Positions 6,411 to 61,171 are shown, counted from the first letter of the stretch. The stretch: DNA of 64,000 nt from Psammoneis japonica (GCA_008632985.1 QPGO01000026.1:558001-622000); one strand, 5' to 3'. Numbers and translations are program-made. The notes: generated by a model from the sequence alone, not told the origin.

Positions 6411-6442
<32 letters not shown>

Positions 6443-8160: not shown

Positions 8161-8162
8161 CA

Positions 8163-16889: not shown

Positions 16890-19490
16890 GATTCACGTCA
16901 CAGAAGTTGAAGTTCACTGCTTTTGTGTGTGTGTTGTAGCCATGATTGGGCATGTGCAACTGTGACCAAGACGGAAAGCATTTTGCAAACAACGCGGCTG
17001 GTGTGCTCTTGTCCCCCCATTTGGTCCAGAGTTGCTTCTGCTCCTGACAAAGACAACTCTTTGATGATGCCAAGCACAGCAGATGTGAGAGCCATTTGCT
17101 CTTGCTTTTGAAGCACACAGTGGTTTGTCTCTGTGTCCTGAGCTTCATCAGGACATCTTGTTTGTGGCTGGCCTTGAGAAAAGTGTTGCGCTGGTGCTCA
17201 GAAGAGCTGGTTGAAAGACGCTGAGGAGTTCTCTCCTGCTTTTGCTCTCAATTTCTCCACTCTCCAATTCATCGTCATTTGAAATGTCAAAAATGTCATC
17301 ATGAGCAGGGCAGTCAGAGAACACAAGGGCAAGGGCTCCTGCTTGGGGTTTTGCTGCAATTTGCTCTTGCACATGATGGGACCTCCTCATGGCCACATGA
17401 TCAAGTTCTTGGGGGCATGTTCCTTTGGGGCCAGTGTGTTGTCAGGAGCCAGCATCCACAGTTCTGAGCAAGAACTCCAGTGCCAGACTGTTGGCCACTC
17501 CATCCTCTGAGCCCAGCAATCCCATCTGCAGCTCCAAGTCTGAGAGCTGCAGTGCACTGCATCTTTGATGATTTCATCCTCGGAGCCAAGCACGCCAAGC
17601 CATGAGGAGCAACTCCATCAGCCACACCAAGCAATGTCCCTTCCTTGGCACCTTCAATGGAGCCCACTGCCATGCCATCTAAAGTGCCAAGTGTGGACCA
17701 CAGCAACCACCCATCAAAGCCTCTGTCATGTGAGCCAAGTGATGGCCCATCTCACACACCTCTTCATGCTTTTGCCATTTGTTGATTTGGTTGGCTCGTG
17801 TGGCCTCCCCCATGGTGAAAAAAATTTTCCCTGAAAAAAAAAAATGACAACTTTCAGTTGACAAAAAGGTGCAGAAAGTTGATTGGTGACAAAGGCTGCA
17901 ATGGTGGCTGGAGGCTGCAAAGCTGCGCATCATTGAGCACGCTCATTTGCTGAGAACAGCACATTGCGGGGGGGGGGGGGGGGGTGATGGGCAACAGACC
18001 AGCAAATTTTTTCCTGTCCAATGAGTGGACAGTGTTGCAGCCAATGCAGACACTGCAAATTTTTGTTGTTTTGTTCAAGAATGGAGAACCTCAATTTGAG
18101 CCACAGTTTCAACAACTTTGAGGCAACTCCCAGAAGCAACTTGTTGCTGTTTTGTGCCAGCACAGCACCAGTGCTGTTGAATGATGTGAATTGTCACACA
18201 AGTGTTCTCACGCAAAATGCATTTTTTGGGACTTGCTCATGGGAAAATTTGTGGCTGTTTCAGAATGCCTCCACATGCCATGGAATGTCTCCAATGTGAG
18301 CTGCAGCTGCTCACATTTAAAGCCAAAGTTTTTGTTGGATGCCAACATGGTGGGCTGACAGGACAGCAGCCAGAGGCCACTTGTGTTCAACAAAAAGTTG
18401 AAAAATGGGTTGCTTGGGGGCTGGAAGTTGTTCATTGGGTGCTCCCAAAGCCATTGTGTCACAGCTGATGTTGGCACTGTTCATTTTCCCTCTGCAGAGT
18501 CAGAGCTGTGATGGATGGTAAATCAATTTTTAAGAAACAAGAACAATCTTCCAGAAATGCACTTGGGAAATTTGCACATCAGGCAGTGATGAACACGAGA
18601 ACCCAAGCGCTCAAGTGATCACAGATGCAGCCCCCCAAAGTGTTGAGTGTTGGACATCCATGTCACAGGAAATGCTCACAACAGGGTGGCTTGGGAGCTG
18701 TGCACCGCAGCCAGAAGATGGGAGAATGAAGTCCAAGTCAAGTGTTGTTGCACACAGAGAGGTGCTGGGCTTGCAGAGCATGAGTGGTGCAATGATGCCT
18801 TCAACCATCACCTGAACAAAAGGATGCCACAATTGCATTGAGTGCATGTTGGGCAATGTTGGTCAGAAGATGGGGTTGTTTTTGGTGGCCCTTGCTCTCT
18901 CCATTGCACAGGTGTCCCATGATGATTCAACCAATTCTTTGCCTGCACAATTTTCTGAAAGACTTTGGCACTGATGATGGATGACGATGAATTGCGCACC
19001 CCTTCAGTTGACACTGGTGGACCAAGTCAGCACCAACAGGGGGTGAGCCACTCCTTTCTGCAGATTGGCCTGCATGGGATGCAACCACAACTTGCATCCT
19101 CAGGACCAGTGCTGGCTTGAAGAAAGGTCTGCCCCATGGGTTCATCATGGGCAGTGTCCGGCTTGATCTCACCCACCTTGCAGCAGTGGCAGAAATGTGG
19201 CTTTGGCAGCACTGAGCTGCAACCAGAGAACCAATCTGCCTTGGGCGTTTTGCTCTGCAGACAATGTTGTTGCCATTCATTGTCCCAAAATTCCAAGCAC
19301 AACTGGAGTGATGCCCAGCTGAAGCAAAACCCGCTGGGGTGTGGTGTTGTTGGGGTGTCTGAATGCCATTTTGGATCTGCTGGGGACATGGAAATAAACG
19401 TGGCACCATTGCAAAGCTGTCGTTCTGCAGATGATGCCATTGCCATTGATTGCCGTCAGTTCCAAGTTCTTCTAAAGCAATGCAGGATGA
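16890..19490. mobile_element. Degenerate TpA- and CpG-depleted domain C (TE relic, family unknown)
   Basis: Very few TA or CG over about 2.6 kb; a poly-G run near 17968-17984; many short Cys/His-rich ORFs. Confidence 0.6.
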
Positions 19491-22479: not shown

Positions 22480-25400
22480 ATTCCACACACCCAAACATGG
22501 CTGGTCTTGATTCTCTTGGATGTAATCAAACGAATGCAATCAATTGAATCGCGCCTTGCACCGACAACAGCTCTTTTTGTGTTTCCTGCTCCTCACTTGG
22601 GACACGCCAAAATCTTAGCTTCGTGTTAACATGGAAGTGTGGTGCCACAGGGACTGCAACCCCAATGCCCTCACACTGAGCAAGACTCTTGCCAATGACC
22701 AAAGTCCCTTCCTTAGAGAGGACAACAATTCTCTCCAAAGTTGAATCCAAAAGGGAACTGTGTCTGCAACAAAGGCCTGCAGCATGTGCATCGGGATCCT
22801 CTCACTTGCCCTCTGCAAGCAAAATCCAGTTCATCTCCAGTGGCTTGAGAGGCTGAAATGAGTTGTTTCACACACACTGACTAAATGGGATTTTGACATG
22901 CATGCAGTTGCAACCCCATCATTTGCGGCAATGTCAATGGCCAGGATCATCCTCTTTGGAAATGTGTTCTGGGTGAATGCCAGAAGTGCCCATCCCATCC
23001 AACTCCATTGTTGGGACAGAGTGAAAGTCCCAATTGTGCCCCAAGTTTTGTTTCAATGGCACACTTGGCTGCAAAACATTGTTCCAATCACAACACATGT
23101 TCATGGAAGCATGTCCTGTTTGTGAGGCAGATCCAAATGGGAACAAAGGTGCAAAGGTCAAACTGAAGACCTTGTTGACAAGGTTCCACAAACCAACAAG
23201 GGTCTTTGTGAAAGAATGCTGCACCCCAAGTTCAAACAAGCTGCATCACCACCTTCCCCAGGTGACCATTGTTGGGGAAAATCATTGCATGGAAATGCAT
23301 CACAAAAGGCATTTGAGTTTTGCAAGACATTTGGGTCAATGCCCAACAGCATTTTCACATTTGCGAACTGCTCCAAGCATCTTCCATCTGATTGAAATGA
23401 CCAAATTTATGAGAGTCATTGTGGCAACAACCAAACAATGTCTGCACAGTGCTCACATGTTGCGCCAGCATTTGTGGTTGCCAAAAAATTGTCCCGTTTT
23501 GTCTGTGCAACCCCCAGAAGATGACAATGCAATCAGAGGCATTGTTTGGTGTTGTTGTTGGATGGTGGCACAACCATTTGTTGTGGGCTCCAATGACTGA
23601 CAGGGTCAGTCAGATTCTTTCTGGCTTTCAGTGCAAGCAGGAGCAGTTGTGCAAGTCTTGTTGTTAGAGTGGTGCTCCAAGTTGGCAGAGGCCATCACCA
23701 ACAACAAAGAAATGTTGCAACTGCACTTCTCAGAAGGCCCAAAGAAGAAAGACTTTTTCAAGGAGCCACTGGCTCACATTGCCAATTCATGCAAGGTTGC
23801 TCCCAAACTGCAGTGGTGCCAGTTTTGCAGAAGGGTGCATTGTCATCATTGCACAACTGAAGCCAAGATGCAAGACACTTGGACAAAATGTGTGAAGCAG
23901 ACAAGGGCACCAAAAGGTTGCAACAACTGGGAGACAAAAACAAAGAGGAGGAGCAGGGGGGGGAGGCACATGGATGAATCAACTGAGGAAGACAAGGGTG
24001 ATCAAGAGGAAGAGGAGGAGCCCATGGATCAAAGGCAGAGAAGAAGGAGAGCATGTGAGAGGCACATCACACACAGCAGGTGGAGATGTTGAAAGCCATT
24101 GCTGGAGTGGGCAATGACAAGAATCTCATTGGCCTTCACAGTTCAAGGCCAAAGCCAAGAGCACCAAGTGCACTTTTGTTTTGTTGTTTGAGCAAAGAGG
24201 AGTGCACCACCAAAAAGAAAGGGAGATGACTGAGAGAATGCATGACAATGCTCAATTGATGTTGCAGGTCAAAAAATTTGTTTGGGTTGATCGAGGTTCA
24301 CAGGATGGGAAGAAACCATGGCCTGGCAATTCCAAAGGAGCTGTTCCTCACTTGTTTGGTTGCTTTGCTGAGCCAAACCCTGGCAGCATGTGTTGCACAA
24401 ACAACAGCTTGCCAAGCCAGCAGGCACATTTGATGGCTGTCCCATGCCAACGTGTGTGGGCCTCATGTCATGTGCTGAACACAAACCTGACAGAGTTCAC
24501 AAATTGAGTGGAAAGTGGATGTGATTTGCAATTCAACACAGATTGCAACACACAGAAGATGGAGTCAGGAGGAGATTGGTGCTCTTCCACATCTCACGTG
24601 GGGTGCTGATTTTGTTGGCTGCACCCTGCATGGCAACCATGTGATGCATGTGACCCTGGATCAGGCTGAGCACAATTTGAAGACACAGTTTTTAGATGTT
24701 TGGGAGGGGGTTGAACGACTGGAAGCCAGACGATGGTTTTTGCCAACAAGCGGCCCATGCCTTTGAAACACTTGTGTGTTTTCATCCCTTGTCATTGCTC
24801 TTTGTTGCATTGGCAGTCTGGAAATGAGAGATTGTGTTGCAATCGAAACATCTGCCAACCAGACCAAAGCTGACAACAGCTGCACATCATTTGCAAGGAA
24901 CATGCTGAACAGCTGTTTGAAGGGGAAAAGTTCCCACCAAAAAACTCAAAGATGAAGTTTTGCAGCAGCTTGGATTGAACCATTTCCTTGGAAGTGGGTG
25001 GTGAATTTTTGTGACGACCTGTGCAACGATGACTGTGTGACTTTGTGCCCCCCATCTGGCGAACAACCACTGCATTGCCTTGCATCATGGGTGGATCTTT
25101 GATTCTGGTCACTGTTTTGCATTGCCAGCAAGTGACATCAAGTGCTCAAATTGGCTGGTGTCTTGGAAATGAGGAGCCCAAGGTGAAACATGTGTGGCAA
25201 ACAAGCTCCTCCGGGGAAACAAGTGACCACATGGTGTGCTTGCTGCTGGTTTGAACTTCCAAAGGCAGCAAAGCAGCCGGGGGATGGCAAAAGGAAAGCT
25301 TGTGAGCTGTGACTCAAAAAATGTGGGATTGTGCTGGGTGTTCCATCCAGTTGCACAATGCAAGGTGACAACCATGGTGCTTGTTTTCATTTTCCCATTG

Positions 25401-25620
25401 CCACCTTGTTCCTCAGACTCTTTGCTTTTCTTGCTGTCCACTCCCGTGCTGTCCTCCTCCTCCTCCTCATTTTCATTGTCATTCTCTTCCTCTTACTCAT
25501 CAGTTTTGCTGTCATCATTGTCATCATCACACTCCTCAAAACAATCCAGTGACTCATGCTGGCAGATCGCATCAAGAATGGCTTCATGCTCGCTCATCCT
25601 CAGTCAAATGCCGGCCGGCC
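22480..25620. mobile_element. Degenerate TpA- and CpG-depleted domain D (TE relic, family unknown)
   Basis: About 3 kb with almost no TA, ending just upstream of the SNRNP40 start. Confidence 0.6.
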
Positions 25621-25733
25621 GCCCAGCGCGAGCGCGCGGGAGTGCACCATCATGGTCTGTCATTCACCCCCCTCATCCCTCAACACTCAAAGGTCAAAGG
25701 AAGACGCACACAACACACAACATTGACGATGCG

Positions 25734-26780
25734 ATGGCGGCGGTTGATAGCAACAGCAGCAACATGGACTTGCCTCCCTCCAAACGGGCTCGAACCAACG
25801 ATATGATGGCTATAACTGAGTATCAAGACCCTGTTGATATCAGAACGTCATCACTCGCGGAACCAACCATGAAACTTACGGGCCACTTGGGCTCGGTCTA
25901 TGCGTTGCAGTATGATCCTGCCGGAGAAGCCTTGTGCAGTGGTTCGTTTGATATGATGTGCTTGTTATGGAATGCATCCGGTAATTGCGAGAATTATAAT
26001 ATCCTCAAGGGCCACAAGAATGCCATTTTGGACTTGTCGTGGAGTTTGGATAGTCAGCACGTGGCGACCGCATCGGCCGATACGAATTTGGGCTGGTTCC
26101 ATGCCAACACGGGGGAACGTGTCAAACGATTCATGGGACACACGGGAATTGTCAATTCGGTCGATACGGCGCACACCATGTCGCCCAATTTGTTGGTGAG
26201 CGGGAGTGATGACTGTACGGCGAAATTATGGGATGCACGCATCAAGGGCGCAACCGGAGACTTGGAACACGAGTTTCAAGTCACAGCTGTAGCGTACGCG
26301 GATGAAGCTCATACGGTGTATACGGGAGGGATTGATAATACAATTTATGCGTGGGATGTCAGAATCATGAAGAAGACCATGGGCATGAAGGGTCATACAG
26401 ATACAATTACGAGCCTGGCGCTACACCCCAAGGGCACTCACTTGCTTTCCAACAGCATGGATGGCACTCTCAAGACGTGGGATATTCGTCCGTTTGTGGC
26501 AGACGATAAGAACCGCCGACATGACAAGACCTTTGTTGGGGGCACTCATGGTGCTGAAAAGGGATTGCTAAAGTGCGCTTGGAATCCAGACGGGACCATG
26601 GTGACGGGTGGAAGTGCCGATCGGATTGTACACGTGTGGGACGAAATGACGGCTGAAGAACTCTACAGTCTTCCCGGGCATACCGGCTCTGTCAACACTG
26701 TAGTGTTTCATCCAAAAGAAAACGTTCTGGCATCGGGATCATCAGACAAGACTATTTACGTCGGAGAGTTGAGCCAATAG
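25734..26780 (+). CDS. SNRNP40: U5 snRNP 40 kDa WD40-repeat protein
   Basis: RTSSLAEPTMKLTGH, seven WD40 repeats, WDIRPF, EKGLLKCAW and LPGHTGSVN...FHPKE...SGSSDKTIYVGEL. The true start is taken as ATG 25734; the ORF-track upstream extension lies in stop-depleted DNA. Confidence 0.9.
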   Translation: MAAVDSNSSNMDLPPSKRARTNDMMAITEYQDPVDIRTSSLAEPTMKLTGHLGSVYALQYDPAGEALCSGSFDMMCLLWNASGNCENYNILKGHKNAILDLSWSLDSQHVATASADTNLGWFHANTGERVKRFMGHTGIVNSVDTAHTMSPNLLVSGSDDCTAKLWDARIKGATGDLEHEFQVTAVAYADEAHTVYTGGIDNTIYAWDVRIMKKTMGMKGHTDTITSLALHPKGTHLLSNSMDGTLKTWDIRPFVADDKNRRHDKTFVGGTHGAEKGLLKCAWNPDGTMVTGGSADRIVHVWDEMTAEELYSLPGHTGSVNTVVFHPKENVLASGSSDKTIYVGELSQ

Positions 26781-47639: not shown

Positions 47640-48231
47640 AAGACACTGCTGGCGCCGCCATGAAAACTGACTCTGGAGTTGTCATGCCATGTGCTTGACA
47701 TGAAATCTTGTTGGAATCTGTCAAGTCTCACCCTGGCAGAGGCTTTTTTTGCCAGCTTTGCATGTCTCTGACAATGCCAGATTTGCCAGCTTTGAATGGG
47801 ATCAGCAAAAAATTAAAAAATCTCAACAAGCATTTGGAGCAAGAGAGAGGCAGACACACAAGTGTTCTTTTGAAATCATCAGCGGCGCTTGAGCCCCCAA
47901 GCACGTGTGCAAAGCAGCTCCATCCAGACAAAAGGCAGTGCCACAAAATCTGTGACTTGGGCCAGAACACCAGCACTTGCTGGCCCTGGCAGCAATGCTC
48001 AGCTCTGAGTGTGAGTGCATTTTCTTGTTTGCTCTGGCTGGGTGCAGCCCATGTTCACGCAACAGAAGTGCGCTGACAATTCCATCTCTCACACAAGTGT
48101 TGTTGTGAAACAACCAACACCACCAGCACAGCAACATGACTTTTGCCAGAGGAGAGCACAGTGTGAGAGGGACTTGCAAAGACAAGCAAGATGTGCTTGG
48201 TTTGACTGACAGATGCAATGGTGCCCCACTG
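47640..48231. mobile_element. TpA-depleted relic DNA flanking the Copia insertion (left)
   Basis: TA and CG are both rare; continuous with 55353-56560 once the Copia element is removed. Confidence 0.5.
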
Positions 48232-48236
48232 CATTG

Positions 48237-48515
48237 TGACAGAAATTGAAGGCAAATGGCAAGAATTCAAACAATGACTCCTTGCTGCTGTCTAAACAGC
48301 AGATGAGTCTCTGCTCAGAGACTGTTGCAGGAGCCGAAAGACGTGCAAGTCGGCACGATCGGGCCACTGTTGTTGTCATTCTTGTGAGCCTTGTGGCTCG
48401 AAAGCAAACTGCATCGCGCACAAACGCACGGAACCAAAGCACACAAAACTGTGCGCGGTGAACTAAACAGCGCGCGACATTTCGCGCGCACCTGAATCCT
48501 GTTCAAATCCTGTCA
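48237..48515 (-). repeat. 3' LTR (279 bp)
   Basis: Direct repeat of 55072-55347, preceded on the minus strand by a purine-rich PPT-like AAACTGGGGAG (48516-48526). Confidence 0.95.
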
Positions 48516-51500
48516 CTCCCCAGTTTGCTTGAGGAGTCACAGAAACAGATTCGACTTCGGGTGGAATGAAGTTCCAGAACATGAGGGGGCGGAGAAGGTC
48601 CCAGATTTGGGAGTGACCCCAATGCTTGCTGAGAATGTCAGCAGGGTTGCGGGAGCCTTCGATGAAGTGGAGCTTGAGGTGGCCAGAGGCGATTGCCTCA
48701 CGCACACGGTGGAATGACAGTGCGGTGTGTCGCTTGTGTAACTTGGAGTGCGGGATGGTGGCACTGTCTACAACTGACTTGTTGTCACCGAACATGCAAC
48801 TGACACCACGGATCGGGACGCCAAGGCAGCGCAGGGTGATGCACAGGTCGACAATCTGCTCGACACAAGTCCTTGTGGCAACAAATTCAGACCCGCAGGT
48901 CGCAGTCTCCATGGTGGCTTGCTTCTCAGAGAACCAATCAGCCGGGAATTTGTTGAGGAAGTGGAGCATTCCCATGACAGAGCGTCCGGTGAGCATGCAA
49001 TGGCACAAGTTTGCATCGACGCAGTGGGTGGCAGTGACGAACTTGCCAAGGGGCGGTGGAGCGTCCTTCGGGATCATCTCTTTTGCTTCGCCATGCATGG
49101 AATGCATCCATTCATGGGCCGGAGCAGGGAGATCCGAACAGTTGGGCTCTTCCGTGCAAACGTGGAGAGCGCCATGTCGCATCTTGGAGAGGCACCCACA
49201 GACGCGTTTGGCACGATCCAAGTGGCCTTGACGGGGCGCAGCTCGGAAGCTAGAGAGTGACATGATGGCCGTGGTGATGTCAATTCAACCAAGAGACACT
49301 GCCCATTGGAGTGAGCCAACAAGGGACTGGAACTTGTGAATGCCATCGGGCTCCAGCAGTTCGGAAGTGTCCAGTTCGGGGTGGTCACCCTTCTCCAGAG
49401 GTGACAGGGCGTTGGTGGCAGGTTTCTCCCCAAACAGTCGGGTGCAGCTGTCGACCATGCACTCGATGTACTTGCGCGGAGACAGGCTCAAGGTGCCATC
49501 GGGATCCCGGGAAAAGTCGCAACCCAGATGGAACTCAATGGGTCCCGTGCCCTTGAGCTTAAACTTGTGCTTTTCCGTGAGAGTGTCGACGAAAGATTGA
49601 GGGTCCTTCATGGCAATGGCGAGGTCATCCACATAAACGGCAATGTGCTCACAGTGGTTGCCGTTCCTGCGCACCCAAATGTTGGGTTCGGCGCGGCAGG
49701 GGAAGAAGCCTTCAGCTCGCAGGCAGTCGGCGAAGCGCTTGTGCCAGCGGAGACCGGAGCTGCGCAGTCCATGCAGGGCCTTGTGGATGACAAGGATGTG
49801 TCCTTCGAGTTTGCCAAATTCGGGTCCGGCTACAATGTAGAGCTTCTCCTCAGTGGTGGCTTCAAGATGGGCATTGCCAATGTCGGTGGCCCATGTCTCC
49901 AACTCGTTGAGTTCGGCCAGGAAAATCATCAGCCGAAGGCCACGGAGGGAGACTGCTCCGGAGCAGACACTGTCGACAGGTGTGTCCGTGAGGTGCCCAT
50001 CGGCCACGAGTCGTGCCTTGTGGCGACTGTCGTGTTTCACGTCGTACACCAGGTGCACTCGGATCTTCTTGTGTCCCGCAGGAGGAGTGGAAGACTCGAA
50101 GGGCCCGCAGTCATGGAAGACTTCGTATTCCTCGAGTTGGTCCATCTCGAGATTAGTTGCGTCTCCCCATTTGCGGTTGCTGTTGCGCTCGTCTAGTGAC
50201 ATGGCGTGTTTGCAGTTCCGGGGAACTTCGCATCCGCACTTGCAGCGAGGTGCAGTGCGGAAGGAGCGAAGCTTGGCTTGGTTGGCCATGCAAAATGGCT
50301 TCTTTTGGCGCCTCGCGATGGTGCGGAACCACTTCCAGCCATCCGTGTCGAGAAGTCCGTTCTCTCGTGCATAGATGGCGCAGGTGACGGGGTCGTCCTT
50401 GGCGATGATGGCGAGAGGCTCGGACGTGATCTCCCCACTTTCCCGTTCAAGCATGATGTTGTAGCTTGAGCCTTTCCAGGTTGGGTCATGAGGCTTCAGA
50501 GGTCCTTCGTGTGACACGATGCGTCGGAATTTCCAAACAGTGGTGTCTTCGTCTTCTTGCTCAATGTGATTCATGATGTCGTTGCAGGCAAGGACTTCCT
50601 CGCATTCATCGTTGTTGACAGAGCAGACGAACTTGGCAAGCTCGGGATTGCCGTTCACTTTCCATTCGTGGTCTTCGATGGCCTTGACGATGCGAGCTCT
50701 GTGGCGTTGTCCATCCTCTTGTGGCTGCATGAGGAAGGCACGTCCGATGATGTCTTGCGGATCGAAAACTGGCATCTTGGGTGTCCTGATCTCCCCATCA
50801 GGAGAATCGATGGGGTTGTCGTCATGGCAAGATTTGATGATGGGTTCAGGTGGCTCCCCATCAGGAGGAGCAAGACGCAGGTTTTGAACGGCAGGATCGG
50901 TGGCAGCGGAGCGCATGTTGGACCGGCAGAGGATCTTCTGAGTCTCGTCAGAGAGAATCTTGAAGGTCATCTTGTGGCCGACGTGCTCAGCAATGCCAAC
51001 GAAGCGTCCACGCAACTCACGGGATTCGGACGGCCAATCGGAGTCATCGAGGTGGAAGCACACGGGTTCCCACCAGTGAAAGCGAAGCAATGGGCTGATG
51101 TCCGGGGTGGAGCCAGTGAGAGTCTCGAGGGGCGTGCGCCAGTGGAGACGTGGGGACACTGTGTGGTTGAGCATGAAGCACACACACATGAGCGCCAGCA
51201 GCCATGTGTGGGCGGGCGAACCAAAACGATCCATGACAGTGTTCGCCATGCGCTTCACGGTCTGGCATCGACGCTCGGCAAAGTTTTGGTGTTGCTGGTG
51301 AGGCTCACTTTGCCAGCTGGAGATGAAGAGGGCACGTGGGATCCCAAGCACTTTGTTGCTGATCTCAACTTGAGCACGGTCACCAATGAGTTTGGATGGG
51401 GCACCACGCTCACGGATCTGATCCTCGAGTGTGTTGACAAACTCTTTGTCCGTCTTGGTGCCGCAGACGTCAGTGACGGTAGACTCGGTGCCAACAAACA

Positions 51501-54132
51501 GTTGGGCGCTGGTGCAACCAGAGTCGATGGCCGGGGTGTCGGCACAAACGGTGTCAGTGGCGACAGGCTCATTGCGGCGGTGCACATTAAGGGCGGGGTT
51601 GGGTGATTTGTGGGCCTTCCTAAGGTGTGTACCGGCGGGCATGCGGGCGTGCTGCGTGGTGCAGTCAAAAGCATGACGGACCGCATCGGCAGGCAGGAAG
51701 CCAAAGTGAGGCCGAAGAGACTCGAAGGGGGGGTCCTTGGGCTGTACAGTGCGCTCCGGGGGCGGAACGTCGTCGCCCTTGGGGTCAATCGCGTGTGGAT
51801 GACACTCATGGAACACGTCGTCGTTCGGAATGAGGTGATCATCGAGGGCGGACGCGTGATCGGCAGACAAGGAAGCGGACATGATGGTCTCGTTGACAAC
51901 GACACGATGACGGCAGTTGCCGCATTCATCAAACAGGTTGGCAGTGGGATCGTCCTGCAGGTCAGAGATCGCGTCGTGCCACTGGTCGTCTTCAGTGACA
52001 GAGTGATCGAGGATGGAAGGATCCCATGTGTCATCACCGGTGAGGATGACATGGGGCAGGGTGTCCCATTCGGCGTCAGTGCAAGGTCGCATGGCAACAC
52101 AAGGCAGGCCGGCCTTGATGTCAATGGGGATGACATGGCCATCAGGAGTGGCAATACGTTGCAAGCCGTTGGGCACCTTGACAGAGCGATCGTTGACATC
52201 CTGTTTGTGCCATTTGAGCTGGCCGCAGGAATGGATGGTCTTGCCCTTGCCCGTGCGTGCGCATTGATGGAGGATGGCGATGACGGGACCACGCTGGGTC
52301 TCAATGACGGCACCAGCGGTGACAACAGGGATGTCCACCAATTGATGGTCGTCAATGCCCTGGACGTCGACTTGGCGAGAGGTGCGTGCAATGACGTGAA
52401 CGTCGTCACCAGCAATGCCGCCGTTGGCCCCACGATCGACTGGAGCACCAGTGCATGTGGAGCGATGAGCAGAGGCAGAGCAAATGACCTTGTGGTTGTC
52501 AACGCGACGGTGAGTGCGGCCGTCAAGTTCTGTGTCATCAGCAGAAGCTGGCGGGGTAGAGGGAGCGGCGGATGGCCCCGGTCGACTGGCATTGGGGGCT
52601 TGGTTAGGAGACAACAGACGTTGCAGATCACCGGGTGGCAGTGGCTTGCGCTTGGTGAGGTGCGCCAGGATGGGATCATCCGAAGTGGCACCCACATTTG
52701 GAGCGGAGTCACCAGAGTCAGCAGGAGTTGTGTTGGACAAGTTGACATCACCGTCTCTCCCAAGGCGTTGGTCGTGAAGGTTGGCCGTAACAGACTCATG
52801 GCAGTTGCTGGCTCGCGGGTTGCGGGGAGGCGGACGAGAATGCTCAAGGATGATCGCCTTGGAGGAATGGGGCAACGAATCCCAGATCCGTTGGTGGTCG
52901 GGAGGGAGACGTTTCCATTGGTCACCGGTGAGGCTGGGACCGTGGGTGTGGGCAGCATTGGCCTGAAGGACGTCAATGTCGCTGTCAATGTCGTAGAACA
53001 CATCGTCGGACAGTTCCTCGGAGCAGACGTTGTGTGCGCACATGGCGCGTCGGGGAGCTCGAGGTGTCGTCTTGGGTTGAAACGCACTGTCGCATTGAGC
53101 TGCCGCGGAGAGGAGCAAGCCACAGCATTGATCGCATGTGAGGCTCTTGCCACTCTGCGTGCGATGCTGATCAGCTTGGTTCTTGACAGCACGGAGTTCC
53201 TCGACAGGGTGTGCGGCATTCTCGAGCATGACGCGCTTCTGTCCTTCAGAGAAGTGGTCACTGGCCGGGATGAGTGCCTCGCACTTGCGCAACTGATCTT
53301 GCCAATGAAGGATGAACCCGTGGGTCGGACCTTTCCAAGTGCCATCACCAAGACGTGCGGTGGTGAGGCACGTCAGCAAGGTGGAGGACTCGACAGATGC
53401 GCGGGTGGAGGCGAGCGCGTGCTCAGACAAGGCGCGGTGGACAGTCTGGGCGTCAGAAGACCCCACATTTTCGCGGATGAGAGCCTTGCCCTTGTCGGTG
53501 AGAAGGATGCGTTCGAAGATGGCGAACATGTGCTTTTGCTGTTCAGCAAAGAGCAGTTTGTCTTCGGGGCTGGTCGGTTTGTACGACGAGTCTAGAATGC
53601 ACTCGACGTCTTGGGCACGGGCTTGTGCCACCAGTGAGGTGTGCCAAGTGTGCCACTGCTTGTCGGATTTGAGAGCCGTGAAAGCGGTGGGATCACGCTT
53701 GATGCCTTGCTTGAAGTCCCGCACCAGGTCGCGTGCCTTGGTCGGGTTGGTGACATGCGGAGGTGCGAGGGGTGAGCTGCCGATGGACACAGAAGACATG
53801 CAGTCGGGGCTGAGGCGGCAGGCAAGGAACTCGTCATGCGTGAACAACGAGGAGTCATTGGCAACGTCAAGACCTTTGTGTGCTTTGACAATGTGCAGAC
53901 CAACTAGAGCTGCTAACATGTTCTTGTGACCACGGGGCAAAGGGATCACATTGGTGCCGTTGTCGCACTCAAGCGAGTCGATTTGGGACAGCATGAACGT
54001 GAACAGTTCTTGATGCGAGTCCGTGCCGTCTTGGGCCAAAGCCAAACGAAGAGGGCTCCCAGCACCTTGGGCAAGCACGGTTCCAACAACGTGCTCGAAA
54101 CCATCGGTTTGTTGCTGACGAGTGAGAACCAT
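48463..54132 (-). pseudogene. Copia gag-pol polyprotein, inactivated by one in-frame TGA and massive Tyr->Cys/His substitution
   Basis: PR VDRGANG; IN D(TVCAD)...D(RAQVE)...QNFAERR; RT KARLVADGH and VYVDD; RNaseH GDNKSV and NPADILSK. TGA at 49285-49287 sits where Arg is expected (WAVSLG*IDI). Confidence 0.95.
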
Positions 54133-55054
54133 GGTAGACAAAAGTGGTGTCAGGACAAGCAATTCTTGTTGGGAAGCGAAGGCAGACTTGAAGCTTGGGT
54201 GAGAATGGACTTGACTTGAAACAGACTTGACTTGAAATCTTGAACTGCCTTAAAATCAGAAGTCGCCGGGCTTTGCTGTCCCGTTCGTTGTTGAGTGCTA
54301 AACTTCCCATCCGGTCCGTAGAGTTGTGCCGGCACGTCCGAACCCGCAGCCAGTGGCGCTTTGGGTTGCTTGCGAGCAGAGCAGCGGGTTGCAAACCCCT
54401 GCAGGTGAGCTGACCAGAGGTGGACAAGACCCCCGAACCATTCTTGTTTTATGTCGGTTGGATTTCCCGATCAGGCTGGCCAGTTGACGCAGGCGTTGGG
54501 CGCTGTGGACGAACGAACAAACGCGGGAAAGCACCCTCGCCCCAACGCAGGCTGTGATCACGGCTGCTTGCTCTCACAGTCATCCTCGTGGACCCAGTGG
54601 AACTGCAGAGCACCAGCAGTCTGGGGCAGATCAGGTGCAATGGACTCGGTGTGCTTGTAGAGTGGCAGCAAAACCGCAGTCCGAAGAGTGGGCACAGGTT
54701 CTTGGCCGTGAAGATGTGTGCATGTGTGCATGTCTTCAGCGACGAAGATCCTTGGACATGTGGGGTTCTAGCCCGTTGACTGATGAACAGGTGTGCCAAG
54801 GGATGAGGATCAAGGACAGACTTGGACATGACCATTGAATGCATGTCTTCAGCGATCAAAGGCAGCACAATCAATCCAGACATCCAGCGGCAAGGAGACT
54901 TGACGGTGACATTAACTTCCTGCCGATGCCCTGGCATTGAATGCGCGTAGACTTGCCGATGTATGTAGAACATGTACGGAGGTCCACGTAGAATTGAAAT
55001 GGCGTCGTTGGTAAATCAACGACGACGATGGCGGTTGCTCAATGGGTTGACAAT

Positions 55055-55071
55055 GAGCAAGACTGTCAATC
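55055..55071 (-). other. Putative primer-binding site complementary to a tRNA anticodon arm (half-tRNA type)
   Basis: GATTGACAGTCTTGC lies directly after the 5' LTR, with no TGG; its complement reads G-CAAGA-CT-GTC-AA-TC. Confidence 0.45.
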
Positions 55072-55347
55072 TGACAGAAATTGAAGGCAAATGGCAAGAA
55101 TTCAAACAACAACTCCTCGCTGCTGTCTAAATGGCAGATGAGTCTCCGCTCAGAGACCGTCACAGGAGCCGAAAGACGTGCAAGTCGGCACAATCGGGCT
55201 ACTGTTGTTATTCTTGTGAGCCTTGTGGCTCGAAAGCAAACTACATCGCGCGCGAACGCGCGGAACTAAAGCACACAAAACTGTGCGCGGTAAACTAAAC
55301 AACGCGCGACATTTCGCGCGCACCTGAATCCTGTTCAAATCCTGTCA
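55072..55347 (-). repeat. 5' LTR (276 bp)
   Basis: Direct repeat of 48237-48515. Confidence 0.95.
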
Positions 55348-55369
55348 CATTGTTTGCCTGACGGATGAT

Positions 55370-55371
<2 letters not shown>

Positions 55372-55404
<33 letters not shown>
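55372..55404. repeat. (AC)n microsatellite
   Basis: Read directly. Confidence 0.95.
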
Positions 55405-55405
<1 letters not shown>

Positions 55406-56560
55406 GGGCAACGTGTCAACAGCTGTGAGCAACTTGTCTCTCTCTTCTCAGAGATGCCACACACCTCTTTTCTTGCTTCTTGCCACATGAAACCTCTCTG
55501 TTGTCAACTCTCTTGAGCAGCAGCTTGCATTGTCACATGTGTTGTTGAAAAGTGCTGCTGTGCTGTTTGTGCAAAACTGCCCAGAATCCAGGTGTTCTTT
55601 CCACCAAGTGGCGAGAATGATCATGAAAAAGAAAGTGGAACAGTCAAGCACCACAGCAGCCACATGAGCAAAAAAAAATTTCAGCTTGCCAAAAGCCAGC
55701 TTCTTCTTGTGACAAACTTGGAGCTGCAGGTTGACTCATTTTAGCACACTCAAGCATCACAAGCAATGCACAGTGTGCTGGCTGGCACCAAGAGAGTGTG
55801 CAAGCAGTTGTCTGGGGGGTGGAGCACTGCACTTGCACGTTGAGCACCCCCATTCTCTCCCCCTCCTTTTTCTCTAACTTGGAGGGTCGCCTGCATGGCT
55901 TGGACATGTGCCTTTCTCATTGAGAAGTGCGCAGCTCATTTGCAACTCCACAGATCATTTTTTGACACTGCTGTGCTCTCCACCCCTTGTTCTGTTCTCA
56001 CACCTCATCCAGAAGATGGGCCAGTGCACTGGCGGTGCTCTCCAGATGATGCACTCTGCACCCAACCTGCAGCAGACCTTGTGTTGATGCACCGTGGATG
56101 GAAAAGGCTCTTCTGGTGCAGATGCTGGCAGGGCGTCTTGCATCACCACCACCAAGCAAAGGCACCAGTGAAGAGCAAACAGAGGGGCCACCAAAGCAGC
56201 GCGCTGCTCTTTTTGGGGGTGGGCCAGGTGGGGGTGGCGGGAGGGCTCAAGGGCTGGTGGCATTGTGGGTCTTCCAGAGAGGCAATGGGTGCACTTGGGA
56301 TTGCTCCCCTGAAGGATGGTTGAGCGAGAAGTGCTGTCCTCGGATCGAAGCATTTGCCCCCCCCCCCCAGCAANACACCACTGGCTCAAGAGGCACACAT
56401 CACAGATGACAACAGCTGCTTCTAAAGAGTGGCTGGAAATGTCATTAAAATTAAAGACCATCTTCCGCCTTCTCCTGTTCCCAGTAGATCCGTGAATTCG
56501 TTGCATTTTATGTGCATGATGCACAATGTGCTGTGTGATGGTGAGGCTGGGGTCAACGCC
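55405..56560. mobile_element. TpA-depleted relic DNA flanking the Copia insertion (right)
   Basis: TA and CG rare, TG/CA-rich; one N at 56374. Confidence 0.5.
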
Positions 56561-56932: not shown

Positions 56933-57784
56933 ATGCAGGGAAGAGAACCAACAAAAGGGCACATCACGAGGTCTATGCGAGCCTTGATTACTTTGATACC
57001 TGCTGGATTGTTTGTGCTCGTTACTATGCAACCCATTAAACAGCTAAAGAGCGGTACTTTTGATGCCCTGAAAACGTCTACCATCGAAGAAAAGATTAAC
57101 TCCTGCGGGTCAAGTTCTTCGGTCTTTGATTCAATCGTTGAAGAAGCCTACAACAGCGCCACTCAAAGTCCACAAGGGACTATACGCAAGAAATTTGATG
57201 TGGATTATTGGGAGAATGAATCCAATTTGACCACCACCGGGGGGCTCGGGAGAATGGATCGAATAATGCTTGGAGAATTGTACGGAGAAGCTGACTCTGT
57301 CTTTGAGTATGGACTGGGAGAATCCACATACATCGCCAACCACGTTGGTGTTCCTCGATACGCTGGTATTGACTCTGATCCGTTATGGGTAGCTGATGTG
57401 CGTGACAAAGTTGCAAGCCATTTTCGTTTCTACTACGGTGACGTTGGTGCAACGGGAAATTGGGGCTATCCTAGCAACAGCAACCTGCCAAAGAACAAGC
57501 TCAACTATCAACTGGCACCTCTTGTTTTGGAACAAAAGCCATTTGATGTATACATGGTGGATGGACGTTGGCGCGTCGCCTCTGCCTTGGCTAGCTTTTT
57601 GCATGCAAGCTCGAGAGGAGCAGATCCGCTCAAAACCAAGGTGCTGATTCATGATTGCGAACGCAAGTATTATCACAATGCGGACCACTTGCTCAACCTG
57701 ACGAGGCACTCAGGCGGCAAACTCTGTCTTTACCAGCGTTTCCCGCATGCAACCGATGAAGCATTGCAGAAACTTGTGGAATGA
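56933..57784 (+). CDS. Class I SAM-dependent methyltransferase-like protein with an N-terminal membrane anchor
   Basis: VFEYGLGEST, GIDSDPLW, FDVYMVDGRWRVA and VLIHD; hydrophobic LITLIPAGLFVLVTM. Confidence 0.7.
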   Translation: MQGREPTKGHITRSMRALITLIPAGLFVLVTMQPIKQLKSGTFDALKTSTIEEKINSCGSSSSVFDSIVEEAYNSATQSPQGTIRKKFDVDYWENESNLTTTGGLGRMDRIMLGELYGEADSVFEYGLGESTYIANHVGVPRYAGIDSDPLWVADVRDKVASHFRFYYGDVGATGNWGYPSNSNLPKNKLNYQLAPLVLEQKPFDVYMVDGRWRVASALASFLHASSRGADPLKTKVLIHDCERKYYHNADHLLNLTRHSGGKLCLYQRFPHATDEALQKLVE

Positions 57785-58040: not shown

Positions 58041-58150
58041 GCACATTTCGTCGAGAAGCAGCACATTCATATTTTTTCGGAATTTTTTTTTTGCATGGCA
58101 CCTCCTGTGAACACCAGCTTGACCTTGTCAACACTTTGGAGGCTCTGGAC
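58041..58150 (-). pseudogene. Short relic copy of the amidohydrolase 3' end and UTR
   Basis: cgtcgagaagcagcacat...cctcctgtgaacaccagcttgaccttgtcaacactttggaggctct aligns to about 62617-62710. Confidence 0.75.
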
Positions 58151-60260
58151 AATCTCACAAAATGTTTGAGTGCTGCCATCGCTTTTCTTGATGGAGAAGG
58201 CTCTGCTGGCACAGTTGCTGCCATCTCCCAAACCCAAGCTGGATGGTGGTGCCTTGCAGGCCCCTTTGTGGCCTGTTCTGGTTTTCTGTGTGGTGATTTG
58301 GCTGTGCTGGCTGGCAGCAGAAATTGGTTGTTGACTCCCAACTCTCTCTGGAAGTTTGTGCCAGGGTCTTGCCATGCTCTGTGGTGACTCACTGGTGGGC
58401 CTGTGCATGGAGTGCCACCTGAACAAAGCCAAGCTGTTCATCTGAGCACCTGACAACTTGACTGCAGAACAGCAGCAACACATGCTTGCAAGCACTTGCT
58501 TGGGCATCAGAGTGGCTGGGAGCAACAACTGAGCACATTTGGAAGGGACCAACATGGCTGACAAACAATGGTGATGACGGCATTGTGCCAACTGGAAACA
58601 AAGTGAGGCAGAGACAGATCTCAAAAAATCTGCTTGATTGTCCAGGTCTGGCCATGAGACCAGCCAAGACCAGGTGTGCCAGCAGACTCCTTGCCCCAAC
58701 AGACATTGTGTTTGCTGCACTGCTGGGTGCATGGGAGCAGGAGTCAGATCTTTGAGCACATTGTGAAATGGTGGTGGCACCATTTTGTTGTCACATTGCA
58801 GGGCATGAATGTTCCCACCAGAGCTTGCAGATGTGCTGCTCTGATGGGAGTGAACACAAAATGATGGTGATGTTCCAACTGTGACAGGGTTGTTCACCTG
58901 TCAACATGCAATCCTTTCTCCTGTCCCAGCATCCAACGATGGGTGATGTGATGACAGAGTTTTGTCTCTCTGGCCATCATCTTGTTGCTTGTTGGCAGTG
59001 GCAAAATCATGTTCTCCTGAGACCTGGGGCATGTTGCTGTGGGTGTGTCCTCATTGAATGGCAGCAGCAAAATTCGCCATGGCCGTGCCACCACACATTG
59101 CCGGTGGCTGGCTTTGTGCGCATCTGCCAGCTGCTGGCACTCCCTGAGCCTGGCATTTCATGCAAGTGGCTGGTGTGGAGTTCTGATGAAGCTGTCTTTT
59201 TCAGCTCCACAGCACATGATGAGTGTGGTGCTCTCTTTGCCAAAATGACACATTGCTCGAATGGCTGCTCAGTTTTCAGCTCTTGTCAATTTTGGGAGGA
59301 AAAATGACTCCCAAAGGCAAGAGGCAGCATCAGAGGCCAAATTTGTCACATCTCAACCATGCACTTAACTTGCATGGCAGCTCTAAGAAATGTGCTGGGG
59401 GGGCTCTTTTTTCCTGCAGACTTTTGTGCAAGGCCTGAGGGCACACACACTTGAGTGTGCAGCAGGGCTTTTGGATCCCCACAACCGCAAGGCATCTGCA
59501 CATTGTCATGGAATGAATCTGAGTGTCTCATGCAGATGAAGCATCTCCCATTGTTCTTTGAAGAAACTGTGGTGACACACAGATTTGTGGCAGCTGCAAG
59601 ACTTGTGCTGTTCTGAGCATTCAACAATGACAGATTTTTGGGTTGTTGTGTTCTAAAGGTGACCACTGCAAGAACATTTTCTCTGTTCACAAAGGCAGTG
59701 CAGAGTGTTGCATGTTCACAAAATGAATGTTGCCATTGCAACAGTGCTTTGTTTGAATTGGAGCTGAGCAGAACTCTCACAAGTGAGGGGAAAAACACTT
59801 CAGCTGCTGCTGGGCTGAGAAAAAGATGCTGCAGCTTGTGCACGGCACATGCAGGTGATGTGCAGCTTTGACTTCTGCAAATTTGTTTGTTTTGAAGTTG
59901 TTTTCATTAAAGTCACATGGGTAAAATCTGGGGAGGGGGCACTCTTTGTTTCTTTTGCTGTGATCATTTTTTAAAATGATTGTGTCGGTGTCTCCCGGAG
60001 CTGGTGCGTTCTTGTCCCTTTTGGCTGATGTCATGTGCAATCTGCAGAATGCCAAATTTGTCAACAACACTGCTGTTGCATTTTAGAGTTTTTAACCCAA
60101 TGGCTTTTTGGGTTGGCAAGTGCATCATGATGGATTAGATGATTGCACGCTGCACAGTCCGATGACCTTTGATGCCAATGCAGTGCCGTGTAGATGGGCT
60201 GTTGCAACTCCATTGGCACAGCAACTCATCATGTTGACAACTCACAGGCATGTGTGAAAC
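58150..60260. mobile_element. Degenerate TpA- and CpG-depleted domain G (TE relic)
   Basis: Almost no TA over about 2 kb. Confidence 0.55.
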
Positions 60261-60339
60261 AAGTGCAGAGTGTTTGCCTGCCCCACAGCCACTGGCGCTG
60301 CAGTTGTTGACTTGCCAATTGACTCAAGAGAGAGCATGC

Positions 60340-60850
60340 GCGTGCGAGAAGAACCAACAAACAATGTGCACATCACAAAGTCTGTGAGAACCCTGATTGC
60401 ACACTGCATTTTCAGTTTTTGTCACTGTGCAACTGTTTGCACCATCAAAGATTGGTGCTTTTATGACCATGGAAACTTCACACAACAACAAAAGGAAAAA
60501 TGTGGAAATGACATTTTCCATGTTTGATGCAATCTTTGAACAAGCCCACAATGGAGCCATTCAAAGTCCGCCAGGAGGTGTCCGAAGACATTTTGATGTG
60601 GATCATTGGAACAATGAATCCAATTTGTCCATGATCAAATGATGCTTGGAGAATTGCACAGAGAAGCCAACTCTGTCTTTCAGCATGAACTGGGAGAATT
60701 TTCGCACATTGCCAACCATGTTGGTGCTCCTCGATGTGATGGCATTGATTCTGACCCATCTTGGATTGCTCAGGTGTGTGGCAAAGTTGTGGATCACTTT
60801 CATTTTCATTTTGGTGATGTTGGTGAAATGAGAGATTGGGGCTGTCCTGG
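60340..60850 (+). pseudogene. Hypermutated, truncated paralog of the 56933-57784 methyltransferase-like gene
   Basis: MLGELHREANSVFQHELGEFSHIANHVGAPRCDGIDSDPSW aligns with MLGELYGEADSVFEYGLGESTYIANHVGVPRYAGIDSDPLW. Confidence 0.9.
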
Positions 60851-61171
60851 GTCCTGGCCATGAACCCCAAGCTGTCAAAAAATTGTTTGTTGCGAGCACG
60901 CAGCCACCAGCACTCAGTTGGGACCACCATGGGTTTGAGCCAACAGCCAAAATGTGAGACAACTTCAAAAGCGGCTGGCATGCAGCCAGAAGTCCAAAGA
61001 GATCATGACAATGGCAAACCACATGGCTTGCACTTCGGCACGAACCATGCCAAACCAGTGGGCCAGCGGGCCAAACCGATTTTCGGAGGGAGACCGACGT
61101 TAAAGAAGAGCCAGGACGAGTTCCTCTCGAAATGCATCCAGAAATCCTCAACATTTTGTCAGCGTGCATCA

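Follow-up and report, generated by a model that had tools for sequence, protein, structure and literature searches.

Within a 64,000-bp stretch of a diatom genome (the window), the reading frame of a Copia polyprotein is open over 5.7 kb and contains hardly any tyrosine codons. This raises the question of which process removed them, and whether the protein or the DNA was its target.

Structure of the element

The insertion represents a complete LTR retrotransposon of the Ty1/copia type, from a family of very high copy number in its pennate diatom host (Table 1). For TrpRS, the best matches came from pennate diatoms, with 72-76% identity. The element has an RVT_2 reverse transcriptase (RT), its direct LTRs end in TG..CA, and 5 bp of the target site are duplicated. 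On the minus strand, the frame starts with ATG at 54132 and terminates with TAG at 48465-48463. This stop falls inside the 3' LTR, and the purine tract GGGGAG lies directly upstream of that LTR. In a Pfam search of polyproteins RVT_2 was the sole match, for the query as well as for two intact homologs (P0002 and P0010). The query was aligned end to end with homologs of 1,800-1,950 aa. Upstream of the RT a putative acidic-residue core (DTV.AD ... DRAQ.E) was recognized by eye, with no Pfam integrase match.

Table 1 Features of the Copia element and of the TA/CG-poor patches in the window (o/e, observed/expected)
Feature	Position	Strand	Remarks
Target-site duplication CAATG, upstream of 5' LTR	55348..55352	(-)	same 5 bases beside both LTRs
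5' LTR, 276 bp, ends TGACAG...CTGTCA	55072..55347	(-)	less mutated LTR; 7 TA left
5' untranslated leader	54250..55071	(-)	with 5' LTR holds 20 of the element's 51 residual TA
Copia polyprotein reading frame	48463..54132	(-)	9 Tyr in 1,898 codons; TA o/e 0.11; GC 57.5%
Less mutated stretch	49470..50463	(-)	12 residual TA in 994 bp vs 17 in remaining 4.7 kb of ORF; 7 of 9 surviving Tyr
RVT_2 reverse transcriptase domain, ORF residues 1361-1571	49450..50082	(-)	PF07727, E = 5e-26, 92.2 bits vs cut-off 31.6
Sole in-frame stop, TGA	49285..49287	(-)	conserved Arg column; CGA -> TGA, CpG type
3' LTR, 279 bp	48237..48515	(-)	more mutated LTR; 2 TA left
Target-site duplication CAATG, downstream of 3' LTR	48232..48236	(-)	copy of 55348..55352
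Older TA/CG-poor patch, lower flank, insertion target	47815..48231		0 TA, 5 CG counted over 47815-48236 (with 5-bp duplication)
Older TA/CG-poor patch, upper flank	55353..56423		2 TA, 15 CG counted over 55348-56423
Near TA-free, CG-poor patch	5219..10643		5 TA in 4,972 bp over three sub-blocks
Patch	16938..19395		4 TA, 21 CG in 2,458 bp
Patch	22883..25748		4 TA, 32 CG in 2,866 bp
Patch, single-copy in reads	58071..61101		11 TA, 35 CG in 3,031 bp
Hypermutated pseudogene copy of gene 56864-57781	60523..60848	(+)	paralog comparison
Unmutated paralog, within ORF 56864-57781	57125..57472	(+)	~300-aa protein family conserved in diatoms

Loss of tyrosine codons and class of mutation

The initial annotation had counted about 9 Tyr in roughly 1890 codons and had described Cys or His at positions usually occupied by Tyr. 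Both observations were borne out. The 1,898 codons encode 9 Tyr (0.47%), 61 Cys (3.21%) and 100 His (5.26%), compared with 3.03-4.97% Tyr (mean 3.90) and means of 1.01% Cys and 3.53% His in the homologs (120 of 120 listed). Using the lowest homolog rate, the Poisson probability of at most 9 Tyr is 2e-15. Tyr was regarded as conserved where it occurs in at least 80% of 45 full-length homologs aligned, which gave 39 columns. In 33 of these, RT and putative integrase motifs among them, Tyr is replaced: by Cys (TGY) in 23, by His (CAY) in seven and by Phe (TTC) in three, while six retain it. For the other residue types, 77-100% of the conserved columns are retained. Cys or His in relatives at the same sites, named initially as counter-evidence, was not observed; the homologs retain Tyr.

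The loss of TA extends over every codon phase and the LTRs, and hence the cause acts on DNA and not on protein. For the ORF, 29 TA were counted in 5,697 bp, with 9, 8 and 12 in the three phases. Nine related loci, used as baseline, contain 45-62 TA/kb (o/e 0.60-0.89) at a GC content of 0.41-0.51, compared with 5.1/kb (o/e 0.11) and 0.575 for the query. Differences were found in 108 of 758 conserved columns. TA->TG/CA fits 41 of them (30 TA->TG, 11 TA->CA) and CG->TG/CA fits 19; the rest comprise six other A:T->G:C changes, no other G:C->A:T change, 24 transversions and 18 columns with at least two changes. The enrichment of substitutions in TA context, proposed initially as a check, was therefore detected (41 of TA type versus 6 other A:T->G:C).

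CpG decays to TpG/CpA alongside the loss of TpA, at a slower pace; in Copia the o/e of CG is 0.86 versus 0.11 for TA. This CpG component, the window-wide extent and the published precedent were left out of the initial annotation.

The preference reaches beyond the dinucleotide: RTAY goes first and YTAR survives. Residual TA is enriched 2- to 4-fold in the contexts CTAA/TTAG, TTAA and CTAG, and ATAT accounts for 0 of 84 residual TA versus 110 of 1,594 in the background (chi-square p = 3e-14).

Apart from one CGA->TGA the frame is intact, as had been noted, and a quick, targeted kill had been concluded from it. The stop falls in a conserved Arg column. The targeting holds with regard to the TA-context transitions. 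The intact frame is no sign of speed, because TA->TG/CA cannot create stops: TAA becomes TGA or CAA, and TAG becomes TGG or CAG. The same change removes TAA and TAG in all six frames, which accounts for off-frame ORFs of 705 and 662 aa.

Time of mutation

A speed above background is supported by the LTR pair, in which 17 of the 18 substituted bases, a small number to judge from, oppose TA or CG to TG or CA. At three sites CA in one LTR faces TG in the other, which indicates independent hits on one ancestral site. The remaining differences are one other substitution and one 3-bp indel. Since the LTRs differ almost solely by this class, the changes occurred after integration.

Read data were available as contigs from one sample of one study. 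Summed over contigs, the depth amounts to 65,000-165,000 in the element versus about 56-65 in most host-gene bins. The copies in the reads differ from the element at 485 places by transitions and at 114 by transversions. For 13 of the 18 best-supported differences the window has TG/CA and other copies have TA or CG, and at three sites both alternative outcomes occur among the copies. Copy variation and LTR differences are indirect signs of rate.

Survival of tyrosine codons

Seven of the nine surviving Tyr had been assigned to a cluster at about 49460-50465, read as patchy or processive action. The cluster was found again at 49470-50463, in the RT domain and just upstream of it. An unbiased permutation test over the 39 conserved Tyr columns gave p = 0.016, a weak signal in favor of patchiness, and selection or a mosaic origin also fits the pattern of survivors. 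Tyr codons make up 7 of 12 residual TA in this stretch versus 2 of 17 in the rest of the ORF (p = 0.014). This survival in the RT region suggests that part of the load was gained before insertion, in a lineage still under selection.

Patches outside the element

TA/CG-poor patches with 0-3.6 TA/kb cover 21,936 of the 64,000 bp, about one third of the window. TA density is 6.4/kb in the Copia interior versus 37.8/kb in the 42,064 bp of background. TpA is depleted to an o/e of 0.01-0.13, CpA/TpG is in excess with 1.3-2.0, and the host genes of the window show a CpG o/e near 1. The patch at 5219..10643 is broken by short stretches of normal composition (7108-7196 and 7779-8142), and in the upper flank of the element a (CA)n run is located around 55373-55404. 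Both flanks belong to a TA/CG-poor patch; thus, the element was inserted into already degraded DNA. In a Pfam search regarding the origin of the older patches, 0 of 40 ORFs gave a match.

Furthermore, the process is shown to act on single-copy, non-retroelement DNA in the window. The two paralogs were compared: 11 of the 15 TA of the normal copy are TG/CA in the patch copy, where 0 TA remain. Of its 15 CG, 11 are TG/CA and 2 are CG, and TG is unchanged at 27 of 31 positions.

Proposed process and alternative explanations

These results are probably explained by a region-targeted chromosomal process converting TpA to TpG/CpA, accompanied by slower CpG decay, in the diatom Copia element and the patches of the window. 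In the targeted chromosomal regions TpA is rewritten to TpG or CpA, and about 90% of it has been lost. In coding sequence Tyr (TAY) becomes Cys (TGY) or His (CAY), and the removal of TAA and TAG leaves a dead element with a long open frame. Chemically, adenine in TpA may be deaminated on either strand of the DNA and the product read as G, as was proposed for Bigelowiella natans, where this signature was described. Ordinary deamination of 5-methylcytosine in methylated repeats could account for the CpG part. Silent or methylated chromatin, not sequence homology, would presumably guide the process, and its role may be genome defence.

One machinery for both palindromic dinucleotides, either a deaminase of A and C or an oxidation of T and 5mC to mispairing forms, appears unlikely. 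It would agree with the LTRs, where both classes are concentrated in the same LTR (TA 4 to 0, CG 6 to 1; combined 10 to 1, p = 0.012), and with the paralog pair, where each class has gone equally far (11 of 15). TA and CG are both missing from the older patches, every 1-kb bin of the window with strong CG depletion is strongly depleted in TA as well, and the preprint on B. natans (Mettrop et al. 2026) refers to ADAT2-type enzymes for which deamination of both A and C in DNA has been reported. However, this co-location could stem from shared heterochromatin, the rates in Copia are far apart (TA o/e 0.11, CG o/e 0.86), and a related locus of another sample (L008) has a CpG o/e of 0.12 with normal TA. 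In addition, methylation of diatom transposable elements, by DNMT5, is reported as well documented (PMC9998398) and would alone predict CpG decay.

It is quite improbable that most of the load was written by A-to-I editing at the RNA or cDNA stage, on genomic or sense/antisense duplex RNA, then made permanent by reverse transcription and passed on to daughter copies. Duplex RNA is plausible for a very high-copy family, and the preferential retention of Tyr codons in the RT region is expected of a lineage copying while mutated. On the sense strand A->G predominates over T->C at Tyr codons, with 23 TG versus 7 CA outcomes (p = 0.005), and Arg codons of conserved columns give 5 versus 2. An RNA-level or transcription-linked contribution, instead of symmetric action on duplex DNA, could be behind this; the preceding base as cause was not significant (a purine precedes 4 of the 7 codons changed to His and 9 of the 23 changed to Cys). 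Nevertheless, the LTRs differ nearly solely by the TA/CG class, including the CA-versus-TG sites, and single-copy non-retroelement DNA and the pseudogene paralog bear the same signature. ADAR-type hyperediting before integration was rejected for these reasons. ADARs prefer a 3' G and, to our knowledge, occur in animals only. The context surviving here, TA followed by G or A, is opposite to this preference, and 6 other A:T->G:C changes versus 41 at TA represent a stricter specificity than the ADAR neighbor preference.

An artefact of sequencing or assembly, in which modified bases of silenced DNA are miscalled at TA and CG (A as G, C as T), is highly improbable. All four runs derive from one sample, the platform is without record, and in some long-read data transition-type errors of the consensus arise at modified motifs. 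Against this, contigs assembled solely from the run data match the window with 0 differences, their word depths being 26-38: one spans 58117-61238 (depth 37.7), a Logan contig spans 47665-48262 at the lower flank and another 55415-56746 at the upper flank. The depth of about 56-65 in host regions and a longest contig of 315 kb indicate accurate reads. Residual TA and CG are present, the LTRs differ from each other, and other copies in the same reads have TA or CG at these sites.

Hardly credible is a selected avoidance of TA by a still functional family, as escape from a TA-reading nuclease or TA-targeting insertions: the 5.7 kb frame with a single stop would fit but follows from the type of mutation, 33 of the 39 Tyr columns conserved among the 45 homologs have another residue, non-coding LTRs and flanks lose TA equally, and other copies of the same genome retain TA at these sites.

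Comparison with known systems

The proposed TpA-directed process resembles fungal RIP of ascomycetes in that dinucleotide-specific transitions riddle repeated or foreign chromosomal DNA, kill transposons and show leakage or patchiness along the elements. In contrast to RIP, which converts CpA to TpA and leads to AT-rich DNA with many stops, TpA is destroyed here, GC rises and stops vanish. RIP itself was rejected, as it requires an excess of TpA, whereas TpA o/e is 0.01-0.13 and CpA/TpG o/e 1.3-2.0. Homology pairing is not indicated either, since mutation is limited to one of the two paralogs and single-copy DNA is affected as well.

The decay of methylated transposons likewise changes CpG to TpG/CpA in repeats and leaves host genes with a CpG o/e near 1. 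It accounts for the minor component in Copia, but cannot yield loss of TA or replacement of Tyr by Cys and His. Footprints of APOBEC3 and ADAR in animal retroelements are also clustered, context-biased, inactivating transitions in copies. APOBEC3 acts on cDNA with G->A in GG/GA context and ADAR on duplex RNA, both before integration. The changes described here go on after that step, and DNA other than retroelements is affected, too.

The closest precedent is the TpA-directed hypermutation of integrated viral DNA in B. natans (Mettrop et al. 2026, bioRxiv 10.64898/2026.01.13.699255). According to this preprint, 230 of 231 hypermutations in mutation-accumulation lines were A->G or T->C, those toward GC were all located at TpA, and TpA-depleted coding sequences were enriched in RT and DDE domains. 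As described there, the changes in the window are nearly only A->G/T->C at TpA, giving both TpG and CpA, with depletion of TpA and gain of CpA and TpG. RT-bearing sequences are affected, and delimited foreign or silent regions lie beside normal host genes. The hosts differ, B. natans being a chlorarachniophyte (rhizarian) and ours a diatom (stramenopile), and the targets here are an LTR retrotransposon of very high copy number, patches of single-copy DNA and the pseudogene of a host gene. The depletion is near saturation (o/e 0.01-0.12), compared with a Rho of 0.45 reported for the viral region. The de novo rate of B. natans was measured in lines, whereas here the signs of an elevated rate are indirect. 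CpG is depleted here and receives 0 mentions in the main text of the preprint; given this absence, the two cases may be different processes.

An ancient defence common to diatoms and chlorarachniophytes, a RIP-like mirror image in which one chromatin-guided machinery with a natural TpA-specific dsDNA adenine editor as its core turns TpA and methylated CpG into TpG/CpA, is conceivable but rather doubtful. If true, transposons, integrated viruses and stray gene duplicates would be silenced without a stop codon ever being made. A literature search found no report of the TpA->TpG/CpA signature in diatoms. Thus, a TpA-erasing signature previously reported solely in one unrelated alga is now described for a diatom.

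Loss of tyrosine and of TA dinucleotides

The flagged frame is the polyprotein of a complete Ty1/copia LTR retrotransposon. At E <= 0.001, 1,532 proteins of a large collection match it, and the best 120 of these, many of them about 1,850-1,900 aa long, are 45-68% identical. The host is a pennate diatom: the tryptophanyl-tRNA synthetase gene of the window has its best named matches, of 72-76% identity, in Grammatophora, Amphora, Seminavis, Phaeodactylum, Nitzschia and Cylindrotheca.

Features of the Copia element and further blocks poor in TA and CG (window positions)
Feature	Position	Strand	Remark
Polyprotein ORF	ATG 54132; terminal TAG 48465-48463	minus	
Single in-frame TGA	49287-49285	minus	conserved Arg column
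LTRs	55347-55072 (276 bp); 48515-48237 (279 bp)	minus	TGACAG...CTGTCA ends
Purine tract	immediately before 3' LTR	minus	
Target-site duplication CAATG	flanks both ends of element		5 bp, perfect
RVT_2 reverse transcriptase	ORF residues 1361-1571		Pfam
Further TA/CG-poor blocks	5219-10643; 16938-19395; 22883-25748; 58071-61101		

Tyrosine accounts for 9 of 1,898 codons (0.47%), cysteine for 3.21% and histidine for 5.26%. Each of the best 120 of the 1,532 homologs contains 3.03-4.97% tyrosine (mean 3.90), with means of 1.01% for cysteine and 3.53% for histidine. The polyprotein was aligned with 45 full-length homologs, the first 45 by id among the listed ones of 1,800-1,950 aa. Columns with one residue in at least 80% of the 45 homologs were regarded as conserved (758 columns). 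At the 39 conserved tyrosine columns the element encodes Cys (TGY) 23 times, His (CAY) seven times, Phe three times and Tyr six times. Every other residue type was kept in 77-100% of its own conserved columns. Thus, the loss of tyrosine to Cys or His at conserved sites, described in the initial annotation, was borne out for 30 of 39 columns. The relatives do not carry Cys or His at these sites; Tyr is found there in at least 80% of the 45 homologs.

The loss is a dinucleotide-specific process at the DNA level. Only 29 TA were counted in the 5,697 bp of the ORF (o/e 0.11), distributed over all three codon phases. Nine related loci contain 45-62 TA per kb (o/e 0.60-0.89) at a GC content of 0.41-0.51, compared with 5.1 per kb and 0.575 for the element. 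A metagenome scan with the protein gave one related locus out of 20 pattern matches, and a scan of genome_contigs gave eight eukaryote-like contigs within bacterial MAG records, which served solely as composition baseline; in viral_contigs no relative was found among 185 pattern matches. The MAG loci (L002-L009) encode a eukaryotic Copia polyprotein under names such as Sphingobacteriaceae, Parvularcula, Bacteroidaceae, Halieaceae and Cetobacterium, and are likely diatom contamination of bacterial bins. One of these fragments (L008:1-1293) has a CpG o/e of 0.12 at normal TA (o/e 0.60). Hence, CpG decay without TA loss can occur in this element group.

The element differs from its homologs in 108 conserved columns. 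Single transitions at TA comprise TA to TG (30) and TA to CA (11), those at CG comprise CG to CA (13) and CG to TG (6). Other A:T to G:C transitions were found six times and other G:C to A:T transitions never; 24 columns require a transversion and 18 two or more changes. Tabulated by dinucleotide context, 60 of 66 single transitions therefore lie at TA or CG, which supports the earlier core claim of targeted point mutation in TA context. The one in-frame stop, previously read as CGA to TGA, stands in a conserved Arg column and is consistent with this change.

The residual TA are skewed in context. CTAA/TTAG is over-represented 3.5-fold, TTAA 4-fold and CTAG 2-fold, and ATAN contexts are under-represented; ATAT makes up 0 of 84 residual TA versus 110 of 1,594 background TA (chi-square p = 3e-14). 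The process thus favours RTAY over YTAR. On the sense strand, Tyr codons gave TG more often than CA (23 vs 7, p = 0.005), and Arg codons 5 vs 2. The TG excess at Tyr codons may follow from a 3'-pyrimidine preference, because TAY always offers a pyrimidine on the sense strand. If a purine before the codon led to His rather than Cys, it should be more common with His outcomes; it precedes the codon in 4 of 7 His and 9 of 23 Cys outcomes, a trend in the predicted direction at numbers that are too small. The excess may instead stem from a strand- or transcription-linked bias.

The mutations are distributed unevenly along the element. The 5' LTR and leader retain 20 of its 51 residual TA, and within the ORF 12 TA are found in the 994 bp of 49470-50463 versus 17 in the other 4.7 kb (p = 0.006). 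This less mutated stretch overlaps the RT domain, and 7 of its 12 TA belong to Tyr codons, compared with 2 of 17 elsewhere (p = 0.014). It may have been protected regionally, it may reflect purifying selection on RT in a lineage that was then still copying, or it may be a mosaic piece that stems from a copy with fewer mutations. The six retained conserved tyrosines fit within 15 consecutive Tyr columns out of 39 (permutation p = 0.016). A patchy or processive action, as suggested earlier, may underlie this clustering, as one reading among several.

Since TA to TG/CA creates no stop (TAA becomes TGA or CAA, TAG becomes TGG or CAG), and a change of the CG class does so only by CGA to TGA, the six frames of the element are poor in TAA and TAG, with 0-10 of both together per frame, whereas TGA occurs up to 81 times. 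With this type of mutation, time cannot be read from an intact frame, and the open frame is not a valid argument for the quick inactivation proposed earlier. Long off-frame and opposite-strand ORFs inside Copia, among them 51255-53372 (minus) and 51607-53595 (plus), with examples of 705 and 662 aa, are a by-product of the TAA/TAG loss and would probably be picked up by gene callers.

Differences between the LTRs and between copies

Better evidence for the speed of the process is given by the LTRs, which are identical at insertion. Apart from a single indel of 3 bp, they now differ by base substitutions at 18 positions, and 17 of the 18 belong to the class TA/CG versus TG/CA. Therefore the changes arose after integration, and with one background-type substitution since insertion the process is far faster than ordinary mutation. 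All four TA-type sites are mutated in the 3' LTR, as are six of the seven CG-type sites; both classes together prefer the 3' LTR (10 vs 1, p = 0.012). At three further sites, CA of one LTR is opposed by TG of its partner; here the same ancestral dinucleotide was hit independently in each LTR.

Contigs of four DNA runs (one sample of one study, platform not on record) were compared with 42001-62000; 13,848 contigs from run X1 fall on this region. Most host-gene bins have a word depth of about 56-65, whereas the depths over the element sum to 65,000-165,000; this sum does not represent a copy number. Where contigs differ from the window, 485 transitions and 114 transversions were counted. The best-supported differences were inspected, 18 of them inside the element, with 568 further ones beyond these. 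At 13 of the 18 the window reads TG or CA and other copies TA or CG, and at 48827/8, 49094/5 and 49115/6 both alternative outcomes are present among the copies. The signature is shared by other copies of this Copia family, whose copy number is very high.

TA- and CG-poor patches outside the element

The site into which Copia inserted was already poor in TA and CG (47815-48231 and 55353-56423). Like the four further blocks in the table, which are non-repetitive, these patches are complex sequence and not microsatellites. The blocks contain 0-3.6 TA and 8.5-25 CG per kb at a TG+CA o/e of 1.7-2.0; the background of 42,064 bp has 37.8 TA and 51.0 CG per kb. Copia, its flanks and the blocks cover 21,936 of 64,000 bp, or about 34%. 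The upper flank contains a (CA)n microsatellite at 55373-55404, separated from the 5' LTR by about 25 bp, and the single N of the window is position 56374.

In the reads the blocks are single-copy; one contig, for example, spans 58117-61238 with 0 differences at a depth of 37.7. Contigs at 47665-48262, 55415-56746 and 58117-61238 show a word depth of 26-38, below that of most host-gene bins, which could result from allelic divergence or hemizygosity. Pfam gave no match for 40 patch ORFs, for four further patch ORFs among 12 tested, or for eight ORFs comprising six from patches and two of normal composition (56864-57781 and 62630-63358). With tblastx of six patches against the window, paralogs were found for 58-61 kb only, besides internal repeats in 5-10 kb.

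This paralog pair allows a direct comparison of a mutated and a normal copy. The patch copy (60523-60848, frame broken) is 77% identical to 57125-57472, which lies inside the intact ORF 56864-57781. The latter belongs to a family of about 300 aa that is conserved in diatoms (matches in Amphora, Epithemia, Fistulifera and Fragilaria) and of unknown function. The normal copy contains 15 TA, of which the patch copy has TG or CA in 11 and TA in none; of its 15 CG, 11 are TG or CA and two are CG. Of the 31 TG of the normal copy, 27 are unchanged. As the normal copy is untouched, the data do not point to plain homology sensing of the kind seen in fungal RIP.

A repeat of about 100-350 bp occurs in three copies of 80-88% identity (61170-61514, 62632-62949 and 58042-58151). 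They bracket the 58-61 kb patch and an FkbM-type methyltransferase gene (61521-62591), which suggests a tandemly duplicated gene cassette.

Discussion

The data are probably best explained by a chromosomal, region-targeted hypermutation that would rewrite TpA to TpG/CpA, accompanied by a slower CpG decay. In this pennate diatom it would act on a Copia family of very high copy number and on further silent DNA. Adenine deamination is the inferred chemistry; a targeting signal and a function in defence are presumed.

This signature was described for the chlorarachniophyte Bigelowiella natans in a preprint of 2026. It reports mutation-accumulation lines in which 231 of 302 new single-nucleotide mutations fell into two integrated viral regions; 230 of the 231 were A to G or T to C, and without exception those towards GC were on TpA (10.64898/2026.01.13.699255). 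RT and DDE domains were over-represented in coding sequences depleted of TpA, and an ADAT2-like adenine deaminase was proposed as agent; the main text mentions neither CpG nor LTR elements, Copia or tyrosine (10.64898/2026.01.13.699255). In our literature search this was the sole report of the signature, and none was found for diatoms. In the founding CoDi paper (Maumus 2009; PMC2806351) no mention was found of dinucleotides, RIP, deamination, hypermutation or tyrosine, and in a 2025 preprint on diatom TEs (10.1101/2025.10.24.684338) none of dinucleotides, deamination, hypermutation, RIP or CpG.

If a TpA-erasing process is real in a diatom, the hypermutation of a rhizarian alga is no curiosity but extends to another major group of marine phytoplankton. 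The enzyme would then become findable by comparison: candidates would be genes common to B. natans and this diatom and missing from diatoms with TpA-retaining transposons. A natural adenine editor acting strictly on TpA in chromosomal DNA would also be of interest for base editing. For annotation, long open frames persist in dead elements and spurious ORFs arise off-frame, so that gene callers will over-predict, and profile searches lose sensitivity by the rewriting of Tyr and Arg codons. Repeats are also distorted in their GC content and codon statistics. Dating by LTR divergence is inflated many-fold, because 17 of 18 substituted bases here come from the TA/CG process.

Among other explanations, a base-modification artefact and selection for TA avoidance were rejected. 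APOBEC and ADAR leave their footprints prior to integration, and the contexts are different. Editing of G to A by APOBEC was rejected for its wrong base and context. According to a study of DNA methyltransferases in diatoms, their DNMT4 enzymes, of unknown function, may be related to RID, the enzyme of fungal RIP (PMC9998398). RIP of the fungal type was rejected as well; it is a functional analogue, but works in the opposite direction and makes TpA and stops. The process in this diatom would be a further case, in a new lineage and close to saturation, of a kind otherwise described in one preprint only.
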